A DNA stretch of 64,000 nt from a virus (IMGVR_UViG_3300036832_001373:32001-96000); one strand, 5' to 3'. Counted from the stretch's first letter, positions 4,801-62,144 are shown. Numbers and translations are program-made. The notes: generated from the sequence alone by a model not told the origin.

Positions 4801-5451
4801 ATGTACTCAGGACATCCTTACTATGGTTACTTTGCTAACATGATAAAGAGAGGTAATAGGTTAGGACGTGACTTCTCTCTAGGAGAAGAGGACTTTAATA
4901 AGTGGCTAGGGATTATAGGACTCATCCCTGAAGATATGTCACGACCATCGGTCGGAAGAGTAGATCATTCCAAAGGGTACGTTTTCGACCAAGAGAAAGG
5001 TAGGTGGAACTTTAGATGGCAAGAACTTAGTGATAATCACAGCGAAGGAGGAACTAGAGGAGCCTTTACAGCGTTTTCATCCGAACAGAGAACAGCATAC
5101 GGGAAACTTGGAGGTAAACGTGCTGCAGAGTTAGGAAGATCCGGATTTCAGAATTTCACTCCTGAACAACGATCAGAGTATGGTAGAGAGTCTTGGAAAG
5201 ATAAAACTAAAGAAGAAATTATGGAGAGAACACGGTTCTTTAGATCGGAGGAACACAAACAGTGCGTGGATAGGTGGAACTCTGATCCAACGAATCCATC
5301 GAAGACAGAAGTGCTACAAGCAGCTTCGGCTGCTAGCTTAAATCATGTCTCAAAGAGGATCTACGTTTGCAGAGTATGTGGAAAAGAATGCTCAAGTCCC
5401 TTGGGTAAGTACAATCATAAGAAGATTCATCCAAGTGGATTTGATGAGTAA
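4801..5451 (+). CDS. Putative homing-endonuclease-like protein (His-Me finger-like N-terminus, C2H2 finger C-terminus)
   Basis: SVGRVDHSKGY...NFRW...N resembles SIDRIDxxKGY HNH-type cores; CRVC...HKKIH. Confidence 0.55.
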   Translation: MYSGHPYYGYFANMIKRGNRLGRDFSLGEEDFNKWLGIIGLIPEDMSRPSVGRVDHSKGYVFDQEKGRWNFRWQELSDNHSEGGTRGAFTAFSSEQRTAYGKLGGKRAAELGRSGFQNFTPEQRSEYGRESWKDKTKEEIMERTRFFRSEEHKQCVDRWNSDPTNPSKTEVLQAASAASLNHVSKRIYVCRVCGKECSSPLGKYNHKKIHPSGFDE

Positions 5452-5464
5452 GAACTGATTGAGT

Positions 5465-5875
5465 TAGTCTAGCATCTGCCACCCAAACCGCAAATGCTAG
5501 ACTGGGGGAGTGAGTGGTTTATCTCCATTTTCCGCTCACTCCTCCGACCATAGCCCAGCATGCAGGTGGCTTATAATAACAGCGTGCAGTCTGGTAGGAG
5601 ACGGGTTTTGCTATGTTCCCGGACTTTCTCTGGATGCGACACCTGAATTGTGGAGTCCCGATGGTCGGGCAACTCTGTGGACGTGGTGGATCCTGTCCAG
5701 ATTCTTCGGACCAGACAATTTATTAGGAAATTTAGTTTCTGTTCCCTGACGTGGTCAAGCTCGGCTACCAGACTTAATAGCCAGGCTCTCTAGACCCGGC
5801 CACGAGCAGGCGGGACGACTCTGGGTTGTTCTCCTATCTCTCCGAGTCGTCCCGAGATCTCTTTATCAAAGGAGT
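5465..5875 (+). ncRNA. Large structured non-coding RNA candidate (unclassified)
   Basis: GC-rich intergenic region with consecutive stems 5466-5503, 5504-5545 (14 bp, 2 G-U), 5588-5597/5765-5774 and 5811-5854. Confidence 0.65.
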
Positions 5876-5882
5876 TAGAACA

Positions 5883-6164
5883 ATGGAGTCTCTCTTAGGC
5901 TATATGATTAGTTTCGAAACCTGGAAGAAGTATATCAGACTTTCAACGGGTAGTGATGATATGAAATCTAGAGTCATTTCTTTCGTTGTACTACTATTTA
6001 ATAAACCAGAATTTCTTGATTCTCTTAAACTTGGTTTGTCATTCGGTGAGTTTATAGAGACTCTTTCGTATGAAGAACTAATTGACTTTGAGAAAACTAT
6101 TCTACTTGCTCGTAACTTGAATAATGTTCCAATAGTCCAAATTGGAAGTGAAAAGATTAACTAG
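5883..6164 (+). CDS. Hypothetical protein
   Basis: AAGGAG RBS supports ATG 5883 rather than 5826. Confidence 0.6.
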   Translation: MESLLGYMISFETWKKYIRLSTGSDDMKSRVISFVVLLFNKPEFLDSLKLGLSFGEFIETLSYEELIDFEKTILLARNLNNVPIVQIGSEKIN

Positions 6165-6183
6165 CTAGAAAGGTTGACAAGCT

Positions 6184-6342
6184 ATGACAGCAGCTAACTA
6201 CACAGTTAAAGAAGTAGTGCGTATCGCTAGAAAGTATCTTAGCGAAGACAGTCTTAGAAAGATGGTTGAAGAACTTCTTAGAGTTGAAGGGAATACTTCT
6301 TTCAAGCAAACTATCAAAATGCTACACAGGGAGCTGATGTAA
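6184..6342 (+). CDS. Small hypothetical protein (52 aa)
   Basis: MTAANYTVKEVVRIARKYLS...; fills the operon. Confidence 0.55.
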   Translation: MTAANYTVKEVVRIARKYLSEDSLRKMVEELLRVEGNTSFKQTIKMLHRELM

Positions 6343-41735: not shown

Positions 41736-43127
41736 CTAGATCACTATAAAAGGTGAGTAGTCAGAAAACTCTTCGTGACGGTAATCTACCATTACCATAT
41801 AAATGTAGGGGTAATTTAGTTGGATAGGAGCAGAATGGCTTTCGTAATGTCTATACCTATGGTCGAACATTTTAATAAACAGTGTCATATCAGCAACAAC
41901 TACTGGTGCAGAATGGTCAACATAATTATGAGTTGTGTGGTCAGCTATTATTAAATACATATTCATAGGCTCTCTATAGCGACCTAAGAAAGCCTGGAGA
42001 ACTAAAGGTACCGATGCTAATTTATAAAACGTATCTAGTAGTAAACCATAAATTTCTTCGTCGTATATGTCAAACTTATTTAAGTCGTAAGTGACTACTA
42101 CGTGGTTTGTTGGATAGTAACCAGTATCAACAGTGTGTCCATCATTGGACACACAAAAGTACTCATCACCAATAAGTTTTAATGTTCCTGGTCTGCTAGG
42201 ATCCCTGCCAAGATGGCATAAGCCACCAGGAAGAACAAAATCTCTGTAGTCATTGGTCCAAGTTGCATCTACGTATAAATGCGTATCGTATACATATGCT
42301 AGAAAATCAATAAAATATTGAGTTCCAGCATATAGAAGAAACTCTTTCCACTCATAGGCTAACCGTCTTCTAGACTCATTGTCCAGAAGACTTATGTTAA
42401 GATAACATCCTACTGTTTCAATAAAAGGACCAAGGAAATCTGGAGGCATTCGGTCCCATCGTCTTAGGTCTCCTGCTCTTTGCGTCAGGTACGTAGACTC
42501 TGAGACTACAAATTTCCTCATATCCTTCATAAATGCACTAAGAAGAGTAGATTGTCTAAAGTAATTCGGAGTATATACTACGGAATTGTAATCAGTACCT
42601 AAAGGTATATGCATTTGCCATTCATCTGATGGCAATATCCATTTAGGAAATGGTGTTATAATATCAATACCTACAGTACTAACGTGATACTGTGGATCTT
42701 CGTTTAATACAGCCATCCCACCTAGAGGGGACGTAATAACAAAACCTTTAAATACTCCACCCTGACCTAAGTCAGACCATTTAAACTTTGATAATGTAGC
42801 ATACCACTCATCTTGATCAACATTCTGATGATCAGGGTCATCACCCTCACACCATAAAGTTAAAGTATCTTCAGGAGCATAGTTTTGATTAATAGCATTA
42901 AGAGTTACAATTGTAGGAGTTAGGGTAAGAAAACTATGAGCAAAGATAGTAACTTTACCAAAACTTACAAGTAAACTTGGTATAGATCCAGACGGACCAA
43001 TATTTAGTGCGTAGTCATTAGTTAGATCAATAGACCAATCATTAGTACCATCTACCGAATAATTGGTAAAACCGCTACCTATAAAAGAGGTAGCCCATAT
43101 AGTTACCTTACCTTGATAAACTGTCAT
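41736..43127 (-). CDS. Baseplate wedge protein (P2 gpI/T4 gp7-like)
   Basis: LLYAGTQYFIDFL, YYPTNHV; lies between gpJ-like gene and fibres. Confidence 0.65.
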   Translation of the reverse strand: MTVYQGKVTIWATSFIGSGFTNYSVDGTNDWSIDLTNDYALNIGPSGSIPSLLVSFGKVTIFAHSFLTLTPTIVTLNAINQNYAPEDTLTLWCEGDDPDHQNVDQDEWYATLSKFKWSDLGQGGVFKGFVITSPLGGMAVLNEDPQYHVSTVGIDIITPFPKWILPSDEWQMHIPLGTDYNSVVYTPNYFRQSTLLSAFMKDMRKFVVSESTYLTQRAGDLRRWDRMPPDFLGPFIETVGCYLNISLLDNESRRRLAYEWKEFLLYAGTQYFIDFLAYVYDTHLYVDATWTNDYRDFVLPGGLCHLGRDPSRPGTLKLIGDEYFCVSNDGHTVDTGYYPTNHVVVTYDLNKFDIYDEEIYGLLLDTFYKLASVPLVLQAFLGRYREPMNMYLIIADHTTHNYVDHSAPVVVADMTLFIKMFDHRYRHYESHSAPIQLNYPYIYMVMVDYRHEEFSDYSPFIVI

Positions 43128-45370
43128 CTGTCACTAGCAGTCATCTGAATATTTAAACTTGTTAGGTATACGTACTGATCTGTATCTACAGGGGTATCAG
43201 CCCCTTGAACTGGATTTATAAAAACGTGATAGTCTACTCCAGGAACTGAAGATACAACTCTTCCGTAGTCAGAGAATTTTATCGACTTAGATATAGATCC
43301 TTTTTTAATCTTTAAGAGATCTGTTATTGTTTTAGATACTTGAGCTAAGACAGTATTTCTACTATAGGCGGGGTTGTAAAAAACCTGTAGAGAAAGATCC
43401 GCTCTAACCATCCTACATGAAGAGTAACTAAACTGAGTTGTAAAGTGGTTTGTATTAAGTATAAAGGAAGCAACCTCAGATTGCTGAGTTGTAGTCAGAT
43501 TTCCAGCATAGTATTGAGCACTTATTATAGCATTTGTAGCAAGATTATTAGGATATCGTAAAACTACTCCAGAAGTATTATAATCAATAGTAGAGGAATT
43601 AGGAGCTATTTGTACCTCAATTTCAGAAACTTTGCAGTAGCTAGAAGCTCCATAAGTTCCGTTTATCTGAAATCTCAAATATGTATAGGCAGTATTATTA
43701 TTTAGAGCGTACCAATTAGTATAACCTTCAACTCCAGGCTCTGGAGGATACACATTTCCTCTGATCGGAATCCAGTCAGGCTGAAAGTTTATTGAAGGAG
43801 GAGTACCTGGAGGAGCTGTTACCAAGCTAGACCCATTAGACCCCCAACAACTTATACTATCTGGAAACGATCTATCATCTAAAAGAGTATCATTAGAAGC
43901 TCTAAATCTAAAACTTTTAGGTACTTGTTGTGACCCACCTGAGAATATGATCATTATGTATAATGGATTAGTTAAAGAAGGAGAAAATCCAGAAGTCCAT
44001 GCTGTATCAGGTGAACCGTCAATAACATTACTAATAGTAGTTCCAATATCAGATGTAGCATATATGTTAGTATCAGGAGTTAATAGAGTATCAAACGAAA
44101 CTCTTGGAGAAGTTAGGACTCCGTATCCATCTATATCAGAGAAAACTATCTTAGAATTACTCCCTGGATCATTATTACTAAATAATGAAGATCCTGGAAT
44201 TGGAAGACTCTGACTTAGAGTTACAACAAAAGTTGAAGTATAACCGTCAGCTGTAGCTAGCTGACCGTCAGAATAGGATAAAATTGTTGAAAGAACTCCT
44301 CCCCAGAATGCTCTATTCATCATATCTAAAGTACCTAAACCTACCATAATAGCTTGTTCGTATTCTCCCCACACCCTAGCATCATCCATAGCAACAGGGC
44401 AGTCGGCACCAAGCAACTGACCAATATAGTCATCACGTCTAACCGACCGTTCATTAGCAGCATACAAACGAGGAGTGACATACTTAATACTGTCCAAGTC
44501 CTCTTCATCGGATCCTCCGGAAGCAACTGTAGTGGTACTACAAGTAATAAGTAATCCAACTCCCTCTGATACTACTATCGTATCATTCAATAGAACAGTA
44601 TCTCCTATTGAAGCGTTATTTCCTTGAGCTCCTAAAGTAGTAGTATATAGAACCTGAATTGTATTTCCAGAAGCTGGAATAACTCCGTAAATACCATTTC
44701 CAAACAGTATTAAAACTCGTCCATCTGGAGATGTCGTAGGGATAAAAACTTGATCTGTTGCTAGGTACTTTACAAAAGTTCCGATACCTTGAGCCCAATA
44801 CTCATTGTTGATAAATACTCGAACTGTATCTTGATCAACCTCATACTGATTTCCAACTAACCATCTTTGAAATTTTTCTCCGGTAGAAGTAAAAGAGATA
44901 GAGTTTTGAATACCTTCAAATACTTCAATTGAGATTTCTGTATCTGAATAACTTATCAAGTAATCACTTCTAGTATGCCAAGTCATGTTTCTACAAGTGA
45001 ATTGAGTATAAGCAGGTATTGTAATTGATTTTTGCGCAGGAGATATCTGTTGACTAAAGTCTGGAAATCCATCTCCAGAAACAATCTTAACAGTTTGCTG
45101 AGCTCCCATACGCCTTCTAGGAGAAATACCTAAAGTACTAGCAATCGCGTATCCAGCACTTTTCAAAAAAGCGAATGGAGTAAAGTTGTTTAAATCCCTT
45201 GTAACTTGAGAATAATTTAGCATAGCAACAACCCCAGCCAACGTATTTGAAAGAAGCACTATAGTTTGATCTGGGAAACCTGCCGACAATAAATCGCTTT
45301 CATTAGCGATTTTAGACTGCATCTCTACGGCTAGAGATGCGTAATCTGTGTTGAGACCAGATAGCTCCAA
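43124..45370 (-). CDS. Baseplate wedge protein (T4 gp6/P2 gpJ-like) with discoidin-like insertion
   Basis: FGNGIYGVIP, GGSDEEDLDSIK, RSVRRDDY, VPGVDY. Confidence 0.85.
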   Translation of the reverse strand: MELSGLNTDYASLAVEMQSKIANESDLLSAGFPDQTIVLLSNTLAGVVAMLNYSQVTRDLNNFTPFAFLKSAGYAIASTLGISPRRRMGAQQTVKIVSGDGFPDFSQQISPAQKSITIPAYTQFTCRNMTWHTRSDYLISYSDTEISIEVFEGIQNSISFTSTGEKFQRWLVGNQYEVDQDTVRVFINNEYWAQGIGTFVKYLATDQVFIPTTSPDGRVLILFGNGIYGVIPASGNTIQVLYTTTLGAQGNNASIGDTVLLNDTIVVSEGVGLLITCSTTTVASGGSDEEDLDSIKYVTPRLYAANERSVRRDDYIGQLLGADCPVAMDDARVWGEYEQAIMVGLGTLDMMNRAFWGGVLSTILSYSDGQLATADGYTSTFVVTLSQSLPIPGSSLFSNNDPGSNSKIVFSDIDGYGVLTSPRVSFDTLLTPDTNIYATSDIGTTISNVIDGSPDTAWTSGFSPSLTNPLYIMIIFSGGSQQVPKSFRFRASNDTLLDDRSFPDSISCWGSNGSSLVTAPPGTPPSINFQPDWIPIRGNVYPPEPGVEGYTNWYALNNNTAYTYLRFQINGTYGASSYCKVSEIEVQIAPNSSTIDYNTSGVVLRYPNNLATNAIISAQYYAGNLTTTQQSEVASFILNTNHFTTQFSYSSCRMVRADLSLQVFYNPAYSRNTVLAQVSKTITDLLKIKKGSISKSIKFSDYGRVVSSVPGVDYHVFINPVQGADTPVDTDQYVYLTSLNIQMTASDR

Positions 45371-45382
45371 TGGTATATCCTC

Positions 45383-45841
45383 CTACTGGCCGACTTGCGT
45401 TGACAGAGACCTTACATAGGTTACAATTTGATCGTTAGAAAGAATTTGATAAACGATGTACGCATTATAGAAATGGATATCATAGTAAGGAATAACAATA
45501 GAAGGCTGTACTTGCACTCTAACTCTTGGTTCCCATCTCTCAATAGCTTCTATGATTGAAATTTTTAGCCTGTATGCTGTCAAATCGTTCATTGGTTCAA
45601 ATAATATACTTTTTATCCTACTTCCAAAATCTCTATTGAACATAAAGCTACCAACTGGGCACTCCAGGATGTTATCAATATTCTCATTTAATGCGTCAGC
45701 TCCAGTAACTACGATCTGATTGGAGCGTTGTTGAAACCGTCTTTCTAGATCATTAAAGAAATATAATTGAGGTGGTAAGTTTTTATTAGTGATATTACCT
45801 GGTCTGGCAGCGTCTCTAGTGAAAGGAAGGGCTAGTGCCAT
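45383..45841 (-). CDS. Baseplate gp25-like protein
   Basis: PVGS..NRDFGS...LFEP...IERWEPRV. Confidence 0.9.
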   Translation of the reverse strand: MALALPFTRDAARPGNITNKNLPPQLYFFNDLERRFQQRSNQIVVTGADALNENIDNILECPVGSFMFNRDFGSRIKSILFEPMNDLTAYRLKISIIEAIERWEPRVRVQVQPSIVIPYYDIHFYNAYIVYQILSNDQIVTYVRSLSTQVGQ

Positions 45842-57840: not shown

Positions 57841-58389
57841 TTAAATGTTAATTGTTCCTACATCAGAGATTTTATCTATATCAGTGTAGTCGAAACTCCA
57901 GGTAATGCTTGGAGCAACAGCACGGCTTTCAGCCATTGACAGAGCAATTGCTGGATTTCCGATTGGGAAGACTCCGTAGAGAGTAGTTTTGATAGTCTTG
58001 GTTCCTGGATTATCATATTGTTGAATAGCTGCGGTGGACGAGATATCCTTTTTATTACCTCCTTTTCCTGTTATCCAGTTATAACATAGTTTCATCCAGG
58101 AAGCTATTGCAACTTGGATGTCTCCATCTACACCTTCTACTAGTGTGGTAGTCCAAGTATGGTGGAACCTAGCTCTACCAGAGTACTCAAGAGTAAATCC
58201 AGCTAGGTCAACTGGTACCTGGTCTATACCTATTCCTGGAATCTCCGTAGCAGTACAACGGAGACTCATGATCTGCGTCATCTGACCACCAATAGCTGCT
58301 CCTTTAGGAGTGATGGTCATCTGAAATTGATACCCTTTAAAGGGATCAACTAGAGCTTCTATGTCCTCAACTCTGGTGTCACCAGCCAC
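57841..58389 (-). CDS. Tail tube protein (T4 gp19-like)
   Basis: CTATEIPG, GRARFHHTWT, LYGVFP, WSFDY; GAGGAG RBS, GTG start. Confidence 0.85.
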   Translation of the reverse strand: MAGDTRVEDIEALVDPFKGYQFQMTITPKGAAIGGQMTQIMSLRCTATEIPGIGIDQVPVDLAGFTLEYSGRARFHHTWTTTLVEGVDGDIQVAIASWMKLCYNWITGKGGNKKDISSTAAIQQYDNPGTKTIKTTLYGVFPIGNPAIALSMAESRAVAPSITWSFDYTDIDKISDVGTINI

Positions 58390-58442: not shown

Positions 58443-61131
58443 TTAACCAGTCGTAGCTCCGAGTAGATTGAACCCAGCCAACGCCTGAATCACGGAGAAA
58501 TTAACTCCTGTGGCTGTGATAATATTCTGCAGCTGAATAAATTCAGCCGCTTTCTCTGGTTGTAGATAAATATCAACGTTTAGTTGGTTCATATCTATAA
58601 CTTGTGGAGGATTGTTGGTCTCATCGCAAACCGTCTTATAGGCATAGAGACCATTCTGAGCCTGAACAAGAGATAGATATTGGTTTAGAGCGTTTGTTAT
58701 ATCTAGACGAGTATATTGGTTGTTTAGTTCGAATAGCTTGAACTTCAAGAACTGTTTTGCAGCACGTTCAATCGTTATGATACAACGACGAACGTTGATT
58801 CTATCAAGGGCAGATGGCTTGGACTGTTGAGTCTTTTGACCAAAGACTACAATACCATCTCCAGGAGAGAAGATAAGAGGATTGATATTCACAGGATTTT
58901 GATAGAGAGCCTCTATATCTCCGATTGCATCGTAACGAACCGTGACATCTACTGGAGGCAGAGTTTGTGATCTTATAACGCCACGATTATAACCAGCAGG
59001 AGCATACCAAGGATATGCCTGGTTATCAGTTCTAGCCATCACCTGAGCAATAAATCCAGACGGAGGAATTGGCATACCAGCTATATCATTATAGCTATCG
59101 TATACCTTAACCCAAGGTGAGTAGAGAGCACAGAAGCTAGACTCGATATTCTGATAGTTTAGCCTCCAGTCAGAAGCCATAGTGATAGGAGTTATCTCAA
59201 CTTTGTTGTAGGGTATGTCGAAGACAGCGAAACAGTCTCGACGTCTCTCAACAAGAGCTTGCATAGATTCTTGGACAGACCAGTCGATATCAGAGACGTA
59301 TCCACCGTTGATAAGTATATTCATATCAACGTATGCAGCATTTCCATACAACTGCCAACCCTGGATAATGTCTCCAGAAGTAACAGGCTGACCATCACTA
59401 CCCATAGTTAGAGGAACTTTGGTTGTGGTAAATGCTGGCATCACATTCTGATCTAGATCAACGTTATCGAATACTCTAATAAAGTTAGAGTATCCGTTGA
59501 TCGCAGTCTCTAGATACATGTTATTTCCATAACCATCTTTCTTATTCTTAATTCTGGAGACATCCCAGACTTCTCTGGTAATGTCAATCCCATTTTGATT
59601 TTCATATACAACTAGTTGGAACCCTTCCGGATCCCAGAGAGTCTGGATTATTGATATCTTGAGATTGTTAGCCCAGACACCTGGATTTTCAGCATAGATC
59701 ATAAAGGCGGTATTACCGGAGTCTGAGCCGATAAAGTTAGCCGAAATTGTTATTCCAGTTCCTGGAGCATTGACGAATGTGATCTCCAAAGCTCCATCAT
59801 CAGCTACTAGAGTACCTGTCTGAATTCCTTGACCAGAGACGTTACCTAAACTATCTACCGTAACTGGGATCGTAGTGGTTCCAACTGCGATCGATAGAAG
59901 TTGAACGATAGGTGCTGGAGCTAGAGTAGCAGCAAACGTTGGAGTTAAGTTATCACCAGTACCAATTTCCTGGTTGACTGAAACTGGGAAGTACTCTGGA
60001 GTTTCAGTCGGAACTCCCTGAGCGATTGGAGTAGACGGATTAGCTGACGTGAAGGTAGCAGCAATCTGAGCTCCACTTGCAGGAGGAGTATCGAAAGTAA
60101 CGTGAATAACACCAGACACGTAGTCGATATCACCAGAGGTAATGCCAGTTCCAACGATAGAACCACCTCCGTCTGCTGTAGTATATCTGGCCGTGATAAC
60201 GTTATTTAGAGCAGGAGCAGCAGAGAAAGTAACTGTTAGTGCCCCAGTAACTTTATTTATAGTACCAGAAACTAGTCCAACACCAGTAACGTTACCTAGA
60301 CTATCAACCGTACAATCTATCTGAGTAGCTCCATTCATAATAGTTAACAAAGTTCCTATAGGAGCAGGAGCCAAATGAGAAGTAAAAGTAGTTGTAGTAC
60401 CATCGCCAGTACCTATCTGGCTCTGATTGTAAACAGATACGTCGATCTGAGTAGCACCTACGTGAATTGCATTTAGAGATTGGAGAGGTACTGGACCTAA
60501 GATACCTGCAAAGATTCTAAAACTTGCATTACCAACTGCGAATACTTGAGTTACGATTTGAGATATACCTGTTTTATTTATGATGACACCAGCATATGCG
60601 CCATTGACACACACTCTAGTGAAGTATAACTGAGTCATCTCTTCTAGAGCACACAAACCACAGTACATAGCGTAACCGTAGTTTACATTAGGTGCTCCAT
60701 TGATAGTTACTAACGCTTGAGTATTAGTAAATAATACTCTTTTGTTGACTGGTCCTCTCGCAGCTTGACCTACGATAGCTCCTACCGAGGTAGCTTGATT
60801 TTGGACTATTGCTGATAGATCTACGTCTCGTGCGTATACCGTTTATGTTCGCTAGAGTTCGCTACTCTCTAACCGTTCCTTTGAGGAACCGCTCATGGTT
60901 ACCCATGAGACCAGACTATATCATCAACCACTAGGGTTGTGTGGTGCTTCGGACCGCTTGGCCCTACTCCCTTACGGGATAGTCGTTGAACCTTCCTACC
61001 AAAGATGGTAGGCTCGGCTTCGGATTGTCCTGACTCGCTTATCCAGGAGTTCCCCGAAATTCTCCACATTGTCATTAGCGAATTGCTTCGCTACGGGGCT
61101 AATAGTAACCCGGGGCGGTATAGACGGCCAT
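58443..61131 (-). CDS. Tail sheath protein, spliced: join(61131..61108, 60839..58443), ~806 aa
   Basis: Spliced N-terminus MAVYTAPG|VYARDVDLS; WYAPAGYNRG, SALDRINVRR, FELN, AEFI. Confidence 0.93.
60840..61107 (-). ncRNA. ORF-less group I intron (268 nt, subgroup IA-like) in sheath gene
   Basis: Exon ends in U, intron ends in G; P1 CGGGU/GCCC; P7 GACUA/UAGUC within UCAACGACUA and GAUAUAGUCU; splicing restores frame. Confidence 0.93.
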
Positions 61132-61156
61132 TTTGGCCTCCTTCTAAGCAACGTAG

Positions 61157-61900
61157 CTACCTTTCTCTGTAAGGCCAAGTTTCTTCTGTCCAAACAGAAA
61201 AAGGAATCTTATTGTCTAGTGACCACTTAGTAGCCTCTAGAAGCTTTAGTTTTACTGTTAAGTCTAACAACTTTCTTTTTGGCTTAATCTCAATAAGTTC
61301 TCTAGAGTCGTCAATATATTCAACTAATATATCTGGAATGTAGTGTTTTTCAACTCCTTCTAAAGAGTACGGAATTCTAAAAGGATTTATTTTAAATGTT
61401 CTCACGTTTTCATCATTATCTAAGTGTGCAAAAGCACGTAACTCCCAGGACGATTGATAATATATACGACCAGTCTTCTTAGAAAAATACCATCCTTTTA
61501 TCTTGGATGTCTTACCTCCTCTAATAAGAGCACCTACTGTACGATTCCAGTACTCCGGATCTTTTCTTAACTCTTCTTTTGTAGCATTTCTTCTCTCAAT
61601 TGAATGAGGAAGATTGAATCCACCTCTGGAATTTCCTTTTAACGACTCTGAAATCTTACCATCTTTATTACACTGAGAAGCTACGTAACTTTGTCTACAA
61701 TTGTAACATCTTCCACCCTTAAATCGATAAGTTAGTCCATAAAAAGTCAAGTCTTTACCGCAGCCTATACATTTATCTTCGTTTGTAAACATCATATGTT
61801 TTCTAAAATAATTCTCAACTGAGAAATGACGTTGAACTATATGTAGTCCTAAAGACTTCCAACTTTTGAAGTCTTTAGGACATTCTTTACAAGAGATCAT
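61157..61900 (-). mobile_element. Zn-finger + TnsA-like PD-(D/E)XK endonuclease (free-standing HEG candidate; gp4-like nuclease is the alternative)
   Basis: CKEC..H...H, CIGC..CYNC; YQSSWE...IPY..HYIPDILV..IEIKP. Confidence 0.7.
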
Positions 61901-61930
61901 TGTCCTATCCTCTCTTACAGTTAACTAACT

Positions 61931-61960
61931 GTAAACGTTTGAGAAGATAGTTTCCCTAGG
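61931..61960 (-). promoter_or_regulatory. Promoter-like motif copy 5 (upstream of the TnsA-like gene)
   Basis: Minus strand CCTAGGG-aaactatcttctcaa-ACGTTTAC. Confidence 0.72.
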
Positions 61961-61964
61961 TTAA

Positions 61965-62144
61965 TCAGGCCGAGGGAGATGTAGAGGGATCTTTGATCAC
62001 TCTAACTCCAGGCGGCAATTTAGTACGATTGACTGTAGTTGGAATTGTAATCTTAGACTTAGGAGGAACCCAATATGAATGCTCATCGTCTGCTTTAACT
62101 GATACTTGAGCATCATTCCGATTGTAGATTGTAGTTGAGGTCAT
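61965..62144 (-). CDS. Small hypothetical protein (59 aa)
   Basis: AGGAG RBS; MTSTTIYNRNDAQVSV...LPPGVRV. Confidence 0.6.
   Translation of the reverse strand: MTSTTIYNRNDAQVSVKADDEHSYWVPPKSKITIPTTVNRTKLPPGVRVIKDPSTSPSA

Follow-up and report, generated by a model that had tools for sequence, protein, structure and literature searches.

Here we report that, in a 64,000-nucleotide (nt) stretch of DNA from an uncultured soil phage (IMGVR_UViG_3300036832_001373, positions 32001-96000; hereafter the window, from whose first letter positions are counted), the tail-sheath gene is split after codon 8 by a predicted group I intron of 268 nt that lacks an open reading frame (ORF), and that the intron lies next to a free-standing gene for a predicted nuclease of the TnsA/T4-gp4 type. 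We propose, with a probability of roughly 0.6, that the nuclease gene and the intron are two selfish elements whose mobility would be linked by co-conversion. This proposal draws on comparison of the locus with related phages, in which the nuclease gene is patchily distributed and in which the same intron lineage recurs in the tail-tube gene. All genes in this part of the window lie on the minus strand (Table 1).

An ORF-less group I intron predicted in the tail-sheath gene

The product of the second sheath exon matches the sheath domains PF04984 and PF17482 as well as phrog_23 (1.4e-75), and is 62-70% identical at the amino acid (aa) level, from its first residue onward, to the sheath proteins of relatives, whose genes were drawn from IMG/VR, JGI, ENA and Logan assemblies. 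Among relatives, P0162 has the closest sheath protein (87% identity), and a metagenome scan with the sheath protein returned three loci, two of these duplicates. RF00028 matched at 61117..60892 over the full model (positions 1-253) with 79.4 bits (E 5e-20; gathering score 50), and the coding strand of the intron holds no ORF of at least 60 aa. In the predicted P1 helix, the exon sequence GGGU is paired with the guide GCCC, and the U.G wobble falls exactly at the 5′ splice site (CCGGGU|), where the final U of exon 1 pairs with G. The 3′ terminal base of the intron (60840) is G, and about 50 nt of additional 3′ hairpins lie beyond P9, with an intron folding z-score of -4.6.

The sheath genes of eight intronless relatives (L005, L006, L007/L008, L010, L013, L015, L027 and L036) read unbroken through the junction as MAVY[I/T/V/L]APGVYARDVDLSAIVQN, and removal of the intron restores this conserved frame (MAVY.APGVYARDVDLS in the homologs), so that both splice sites are fixed by homology, to the base. 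An initial annotation of this DNA had proposed an ORF-less group I intron here, between a 24-nt exon 1 (MAVYTAPG, with a GGAGG ribosome-binding site) and an exon 2 beginning VYARDVDLS; the Rfam match supports the intron, and the eight relatives show the exon reading to be exact. We infer that the predicted self-splicing intron would rejoin the conserved ...APG|VY... N-terminus of the sheath protein.

The insertion point lies in the best-conserved stretch of the sheath protein, with 80-87% identity compared to 45-67% further in. Codon 8 is GGT in this allele alone, the intronless sheath alleles having GGC, GGG or GGA, which fits the requirement for U at position -1 of the predicted splice site. 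As an exclusive mark of intron-bearing alleles, U at -1 holds at the sheath gene and fails at the tube gene, where several intronless alleles have GGT. We also observed that a 7-nt sequence of exon 1, UAUACCG (61112-61118), is complementary to the 3′ junction CG|GUAUA (60835-60841) and is paired with it in the minimum-energy fold; this pairing may be due to chance, or may help in exon alignment.

The initial annotation had further placed sheath introns in Twort. In the literature on Twort-like phages, coverage of which was incomplete so that absence is unproven, no sheath-gene intron was found, the introns reported there being in lysin, terminase, polymerase, recombinase and nrdE genes.

A predicted TnsA/gp4-type nuclease encoded next to the intron

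The stop codon of the neighbouring nuclease gene lies 25 nt before the sheath ATG and 49 nt from the 5′ splice site of the intron. Residues 163-239 of its 247-aa product match PF08722 (TnsA-like_N) with 40.6 bits (E 4e-10; curated cut-off 26.5 bits), and the best PHROG is phrog_218 (T4 gp4-like 'head closure', 4.5e-15). The TnsA/gp4-type PD-(D/E)XK domain occupies the C-terminal residues ~133-240, where the motif SSWE...PD...ExK (E153, D190, E204, K206) is invariant in an alignment with nine relatives; among 149 family representatives, the two E residues and the D never vary, and at least 90% retain the lysine of ExK. An AlphaFold model has a predicted local distance difference test score (pLDDT) above 90 for residues ~135-240, with a poorly modelled linker, and the top PDB matches of the C-terminal domain in Foldseek are the TnsA structure 1t0f_A (E 1.3e-7, 124 columns, root-mean-square deviation 2.8) and 1f1z. 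From sequence and model, the protein is thus predicted to be a nuclease with a TnsA/T4-gp4-type PD-(D/E)XK fold and intact active-site residues.

Upstream of this domain, the N-terminal ~130 residues hold CxxC...HxxxxH and CxxC...CxxC motifs. A zinc (Zn)-finger/TnsA-type nuclease about 25 nt upstream of the sheath gene had been described in the initial annotation: the TnsA fold and the position stand, and the Zn-finger-like modules are weak matches only. With tblastn, the protein is 31-44% identical to annotated head-completion proteins of cultured phages, over residues 120-207 only.

A transposase of the Tn7 TnsA type was considered and rejected. The protein ends after the nuclease domain, no TnsA C-terminal domain and no TnsB or TnsC partners were found in the neighbourhood of the gene, and the gene is flanked by the sheath gene and a phage ORF of 59 aa.

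Patchy distribution of the nuclease gene among relatives

The 59-aa ORF upstream of the nuclease gene has homologs of 58-67 aa that lie directly upstream of the sheath gene in L005, L007, L008, L010, L027 and L036; in these relatives (L007/L008 counting as one locus), the small ORF is followed by the sheath gene after a spacer of ~80-150 nt, with no nuclease gene. An unrelated 102-aa ORF takes the place of the nuclease gene between small ORF and sheath gene in L006 and in the P0156 contig, and the gene map of the P0159 contig shows no nuclease at the sheath locus. In L013 and L015, the small-ORF homologs stand upstream of a nuclease gene. The sheath proteins of the nuclease-plus L013 and L015 interleave with those of the nuclease-minus L005, L006, L007 and L010 (81-89% identity within the cluster), and the sheath of the phage studied here is an outgroup to this cluster (68-70% identity). 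As markers of nuclease-plus alleles, a codon 5 other than Ile/Leu and a GCA codon 11 were considered and discarded, as the nuclease-less L036 has both.

In G001-G003, three other intergenic sites contain nuclease paralogs, which are 280-383 aa long and share 44-46% identity over the nuclease domain, and the genes that flank these sites are directly adjacent in the genome studied here. The family is hence found at four different loci across relatives, and G001 carries two paralogs. Three NUMOD3 motifs (E 2e-12) were detected in one paralog, which also matches the 'homing endonuclease' PHROGs 314 and 655. At one of the three sites, where a gp6-like and a gp25/53-like gene for the baseplate wedge lie on either side, G002 and G003 carry NUMOD3-bearing TnsA-like genes (L024 5161-6312 / L029 4001-5077; L023 4609-5655); in the window, the gp6-like (43124-45370) and gp25/53-like (45383-45841) genes are 12 nt apart. 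Immediately upstream of its intronless tube gene, L015 carries what seems to be an endonuclease gene in decay: a 46-aa ORF (6077-6217) that is a C-terminal TnsA-like remnant and shares 68% identity with residues 211-241 of the nuclease in the window.

A nuclease profile search over 1.84 billion representatives gave 9,219 clusters (50% identity) matching at E <=1e-3. Among the best 149 of these clusters, the nuclease domain is C-terminal in all and the N-terminal regions are variable, with NUMOD3 in 42 of the 149 representatives (best E 1.5e-34) and C2H2 or Ros/MucR fingers in others. The homolog in Xanthomonas phage phiXF1 is surrounded by unannotated genes, and a scan of viral contigs with nuclease peptide patterns gave no match. 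We also noted a 46%-identical homolog in the P0004 contig, which adjoins a gene with an Acb2/Tad1-hairpin (anti-defence) Pfam match, in a context unlike the sheath locus.

A scattered distribution, insertion at many sites, decay and a modular set of DNA-binding domains characterise free-standing homing endonuclease genes, of which T4 seg and mob are examples (PMC2988022, PMC2790892). The comparative data favour a mobile endonuclease gene over a head-completion gene of the gp4 type. Universal conservation as a gp4-like gene in intronless relatives, which the initial annotation had named as evidence that would tell against homing, is not what these phages show: most lack the gene at the locus, and paralogs lie elsewhere.

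In the nuclease-plus, intronless L013 (6835-6965), the position of the sheath start codon reads CAA, and the called gene starts 43 codons upstream with a hydrophobic MGKIIWSLVTLIGSYLVYKGL... segment. Possible explanations are a genuine extension of the N-terminus, translation from a GTG at codon 3, or an artefact of assembly.

Recurrence of the intron lineage in the tail-tube gene and a further intron in the capsid gene

An Rfam scan of the relatives' loci gave one further group I intron (L007 9043-9265), which interrupts the tail-tube gene after codon 19 (MAGPVSINDVQGLVDPLKG|YQFQM), following AAG GGT. The tube intron and the ORF that precedes it are located at L007 8417-9320 and L009 2439-3555, also in L033, L034 and L035, and two exact-pattern scans of IMG/VR found this intron in G001, G002 and G003 only. 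Between G001 and G003, the tube introns share 95% identity; both are 81-82% identical to the sheath intron over the full length, including the peripheral hairpins. Compensatory double changes affect 11 of 77 predicted pairs across the three intron copies in two host genes, which, coming from three sequences only, is modest support for the structure. The same P1 guide pairs with exon GGGU in both the sheath and the tube gene. These comparisons indicate that one ribozyme lineage is present in two genes, each time following a glycine codon (GGT) close to the 5′ end.

Each of the three genomes with a tube intron has an additional ORF inserted between sheath and tube genes; the ORF ends at the tube ATG or shortly before it. 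It encodes, in G001 and G002, a 192-aa protein that combines the motif GRYDHSKGYVFD...NNRWNFRW with a Zn finger at its C-terminus, and in G003 a 255-aa Zn-ribbon protein that looks unrelated to the 192-aa type; both families are multi-copy and patchy in these phages. A look-up of the 192-aa ORF in the ESM Atlas pointed to NUMOD3 and HNH_3 clusters, which we treat as a lead only. L013 carries a 222-aa homolog of the 255-aa family at the tube site, with an intronless tube gene, and tube sites with neither an endonuclease-like ORF nor an intron are seen in the window, L005, L006, L010, L011 and three further contigs.

A second ORF-less group I intron of the genome studied here, near the 3′ end of the major capsid gene, lies outside the window (Table 1). 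Its junction is approximate, with a likely short exon 2 ending ...NPGYFVKGTVSNYSA, and it is unrelated to the sheath intron beyond the core (~55% identity). About 120 nt from it, a converging ORF (G000 119284-119802, plus strand) encodes a 172-aa Zn-finger protein of the 255-aa family with its own motif, TAGGGGAACTA...ACGTTAAC. By eye, the 172/255-aa family may have a GIY-YIG-like N-terminus.

In the early region of the window, an ORF at 4801-5451 (plus strand) with an RVDHSKGYVFD...RWNFRW motif is a further member of the 192-aa family. Downstream of it, a structured 400-nt region (5465-5875) has no Rfam match.

Association of introns with endonuclease-like genes

Endonuclease-like ORFs are seen without an intron; no intron is seen without such a neighbour at the sheath, tube and capsid sites. 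Counted over distinct alleles at the sheath and tube sites, which are few, related and not phylogenetically independent, 3 of the 7 alleles that have an endonuclease-like ORF next to them carry an intron, and none of the 16 that lack such an ORF does (rough Fisher p ~0.02). For the origin of mobile introns, Bonocora and Shub (2009) reportedly proposed an order in which the endonuclease comes first and the intron second. The occurrence of endonuclease-like ORFs without introns, and never the reverse, matches an endonuclease-first order in these sequence comparisons.

Promoter-like motif, second strain and features of the locus

The nuclease gene is preceded by a promoter-like motif that is repeated in the genome. 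The form TAGGGAAACTA-N9-ACGTT(A/T)AC has six copies in the 147.5-kb genome (G000:C1 21912, 31821, 58427, 93949(-), 117614 and 144190), each oriented with a gene and 25-35 nt upstream of its ATG, and its second half is ACGTTAAC in copies other than that of the nuclease. Four copies precede plus-strand genes, one precedes a mobile-looking ORF at G000 117661, and a near-variant precedes the ORF beside the capsid intron. The motif had earlier been called a replication-gene promoter motif of which the nuclease gene carries its own copy, as is the case here; it probably represents a phage-specific early or middle promoter class. A palindrome overlaps the motif on the side of the nuclease ATG. A related TATTACAGTA motif is conserved, in either orientation, upstream of the sheath gene or the nuclease gene in L005, L007, L010 and L015. 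The rest of the window shows no repetition of it (3 matches, 2.3 expected), and it may be a late promoter or operator.

An 865-nt contig from a second soil metagenome, which belongs to a different study, matches this locus with ~98% identity (18 differences) and runs from exon 2 through the intron and exon 1 into the 3′ portion of the nuclease gene. Its differences cluster in a 60-nt stretch (61556-61618) in the N-terminal half of the nuclease gene, and one listed difference, at 61052, falls in the intron. No intronless or nuclease-less joint was found at the locus in the contigs of the two soil metagenomes, which, being contigs only, are uninformative on rare variants.

Table 1. Sheath locus and associated features, in window coordinates unless a genome or locus is named.
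Feature	Position	Strand	Description
Tail-tube gene	57841..58389	minus	uninterrupted; 53 nt after sheath stop; phrog_45
Sheath exon 2	60839..58443	minus	798 codons + stop; starts VYARDVDLS
Group I intron	61107..60840	minus	no ORF; 268 nt; predicted P1-P9 core and two 3′ peripheral hairpins; last base G
Sheath exon 1	61131..61108	minus	ATG GCC GTC TAT ACC GCC CCG GGT = MAVYTAPG; 8 codons
Sheath ribosome-binding site	61141..61137	minus	GGAGG; in the 25-nt spacer 3′ of the nuclease stop; direct sequence reading
Free-standing nuclease gene (predicted)	61900..61157	minus	247 aa; PF08722, phrog_218, AlphaFold C-terminal domain
Palindrome	61915-61934		TTACAGTT-AACT-AACTGTAA; overlaps promoter-like motif, towards nuclease ATG
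Promoter-like motif	61931..61958	minus	TAGGGAAACTA-N9-ACGTTTAC; 30 nt upstream of nuclease ATG
Small conserved ORF	61965..62144	minus	59 aa; relatives' homologs directly upstream of sheath; left border of nuclease insertion
Capsid-gene intron	G000:C1 ~119920-120190 (L002 ~1470-1740)	minus	outside window; no ORF; RF00028 72.8 bits

Discussion

We propose that the nuclease gene became inserted in front of the sheath gene, between the latter's ribosome-binding site and the small conserved ORF. During a mixed infection, the nuclease would cut or nick the DNA of a relative that lacks it, either within the conserved 5′ end of the sheath gene or close by, and recombinational repair from the donor would copy the nuclease gene into the recipient; at a distance of only 49 nt from the nuclease stop, the intron would be copied along. 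A cut at the intron site would amount to collaborative homing, and a cut nearby to trans homing. The intron probably reached the sheath site by ectopic insertion at GGGU, since the same lineage, with the same guide, follows AAG GGT in the tube gene of relatives. Splicing, the activity of the nuclease, its target and a protective role of the intron are predictions of this scheme.

The two routes fare differently against the data, and we weight them roughly equally, as the data do not separate them. In strict collaborative homing, the reading put forward in the initial annotation, the nuclease would cleave CCNGGN|GTNTAY in intronless sheath genes, and the intron, by splitting this site, would render its carrier immune. 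The layout is that published for free-standing endonucleases with ORF-less introns (PMC2790892, PMC6083498), the insertion lies in the most conserved stretch of the sheath protein, and introns occur only beside endonuclease-like ORFs at three sites; nuclease-plus, intron-minus alleles and a PG|VY site without any distinguishing substitution argue against it, and by itself this route is rather doubtful. Just as doubtful, taken singly, is trans homing or hitch-hiking, with a target elsewhere nearby (intergenic or in the small ORF) and an intron that gives no protection and is carried in the co-conversion tract. MobE and the T4 nrdB intron provide a precedent for a cut away from the intron site (PMC2790892), and the occurrence of the nuclease without an intron at the same locus, as well as the short distance between intron and nuclease stop, is consistent with this route. 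Alone, it leaves unexplained why the same lineage stands beside different endonuclease families at two genes, yet this is expected if only linked introns persist.

Several observations weigh against linked mobility of the nuclease gene and the intron altogether. The intron at the sheath site is known from one phage lineage (this phage and the near-identical strain, n=1). In L013/L014 and L015, a 58%-identical nuclease homolog occupies the same spot beside an uninterrupted sheath gene, so the intron is not required for the self-tolerance of a carrier, and alleles with and without the nuclease cannot be told apart by any nucleotide at PG|VY or close to it. For the 192-aa and 255-aa ORFs next to the tube and capsid introns, which are putative endonucleases, neither Pfam nor PHROGs gave a match, and the AlphaFold model of the 192-aa ORF has a pLDDT of 55. 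In the nuclease itself, the C2H2 Zn-finger matches are weak (E 0.006-0.1), and NUMOD3 is present in paralogs, not in this protein. Finally, the 147.5-kb record, ~70% complete, has no other gp4/TnsA-like gene.

That last point bears directly on the possibility that the gene is the phage's own head-completion nuclease of the T4 gp4 type, with an extra N-terminal domain, and that its adjacency to the intron is coincidental. The best PHROG and the tblastn matches carry head-closure and head-completion labels, the gene sits in the structural module of a distantly T4-like myovirus, and T4 gp4 is a TnsA-like nuclease required for morphogenesis (PMC7824862, citing Benler et al. 2020). We nevertheless regard this as very unlikely: the gene is missing from the locus in most relatives (at least six loci), the family occupies four loci across them, G001 has two copies and L015 a decayed remnant, and NUMOD3, C2H2 and Ros/MucR modules are common in the family. 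Moreover, its promoter-like motif is shared with genes on the other strand, which is not a late-gene context, and the protein has 247 aa compared to ~150 aa in gp4, and has an N-terminal region of ~130 aa with Cys/His motifs. Alternatively, the nuclease gene and the intron could be independent selfish elements that both tend to land at the conserved 5′ ends of highly expressed late genes. At least three families of mobile ORFs occupy many intergenic sites in this phage group, so that chance adjacency is not rare, and the association statistic comes from few, related alleles; every intron site (sheath, tube and capsid) nonetheless has an endonuclease-like ORF within ~120 nt, and none of the 16 alleles lacking such an ORF at the sheath and tube sites carries an intron, making independence of the two elements unlikely.

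The layout itself is of a known kind, exemplified by F-CphI/psbA in S-PM2 and by MobE/nrdB. Collaborative homing of F-CphI and the psbA intron of cyanophage S-PM2 was reportedly described by Zeng, Bonocora and Shub (2009). As in the locus described here, a free-standing endonuclease lies beside an ORF-less group I intron in a phage protein gene, in line with the earlier statement that this combination is known in phages (PMC6083498, PMC2790892), and by the logic proposed here intronless alleles would likewise be cut, the intron mobilised and its carrier perhaps protected. F-CphI has an Endo VII-type motif (PMC6083498), whereas the present protein is of the TnsA/gp4-type PD-(D/E)XK kind; in addition, the nuclease gene here precedes the gene that is interrupted and ends 49 nt short of the intron, the intron resides in a gene for a virion structural protein, and the system is known from sequence alone.

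Two pathways have been described by which a free-standing endonuclease mobilises a nearby intron, a collaborative one with a cut at the site and a trans one with a cut nearby (PMC2790892). In T4, MobE is an adjacent free-standing endonuclease that mobilises an nrdB intron unable to move alone, with proximity being essential, and in this it resembles our proposal; MobE is an HNH enzyme that nicks away from the intron site, and the I-TevIII of this case is defunct (PMC2790892). By comparison, the sheath intron never had an ORF as far as is visible, and the relatives keep endonuclease-only, endonuclease-plus-intron and empty states. The mobE/nrdB case of Aeh1 is said to have been treated by Bonocora and Shub (2009).

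With regard to the nuclease, Tn7 TnsA provides the best structural match (1t0f_A) and the Pfam family (PF08722), but the gene here stands alone between phage structural genes, with no TnsA C-terminal domain, TnsB/TnsC or transposon ends. I-Ssp6803I is a small PD-(D/E)XK homing endonuclease in a tRNA intron, without NUMOD or Zn-finger modules. It resembles the present protein in that the PD-(D/E)XK superfamily would serve intron homing in both, and no sequence match between the two was detectable. The I-Ssp6803I family is listed among homing endonuclease families (PMC6083498). In architecture, the closest analogue is I-Bth0305I, which has an N-terminal NUMOD-type region and a C-terminal restriction-endonuclease-like domain and occurs in phage introns (PMC3239194). 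It is intron-encoded with a Vsr-like EDxHD catalytic domain (PMC3239194), in contrast to the free-standing E...PD...ExK protein of TnsA type described here. T4 gp4 (phrog_218) shares the TnsA-like PD-(D/E)XK domain, and both genes lie in myovirus structural modules. T4 gp4 consists of a single domain of ~150 aa, its gene is conserved and syntenic, and it is reported to be required for morphogenesis as a non-specific DNase (PMC7824862), whereas the present gene has DNA-binding-like N-terminal modules and its family is patchy, multi-copy in some genomes and found at varied intergenic sites.

What is new here, to judge from these comparisons, is the catalytic family, the sheath and tube host genes, and the pairing of one intron lineage with unrelated endonuclease-like genes at two sites. 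In the literature, coverage of which was incomplete, we found no description of TnsA/gp4-type domains with NUMOD3 or Zn fingers as homing endonucleases. We tentatively suggest, as a possibility short of an even chance, that TnsA/gp4-type nucleases with NUMOD3/Zn-finger modules form a large, undescribed family of free-standing homing endonucleases of environmental phages (~9,200 clusters) with T4 gp4 as a single-domain relative, that one ORF-less intron lineage has repeatedly been captured at the targets of unrelated endonucleases (sheath and tube), and that the allele series may represent steps of mobile intron formation.

A free-standing endonuclease together with an ORF-less intron is a proposed intermediate in the origin of mobile group I introns, for which only a handful of natural cases are documented. 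Empty, endonuclease-only, endonuclease-plus-intron and decayed-endonuclease sites form a comparative series at two genes, and because the same ribozyme lineage occurs with unrelated endonuclease-like genes along this series, the order of events, as well as the question of whether the intron acts as immunity, becomes directly testable. The TnsA/gp4-like family with NUMOD3/Zn-finger modules is a candidate new homing-endonuclease family, relevant to phage genome evolution and to long-target nucleases, and its distribution suggests that the labels 'head completion protein' or 'head closure protein' on such genes are often wrong.

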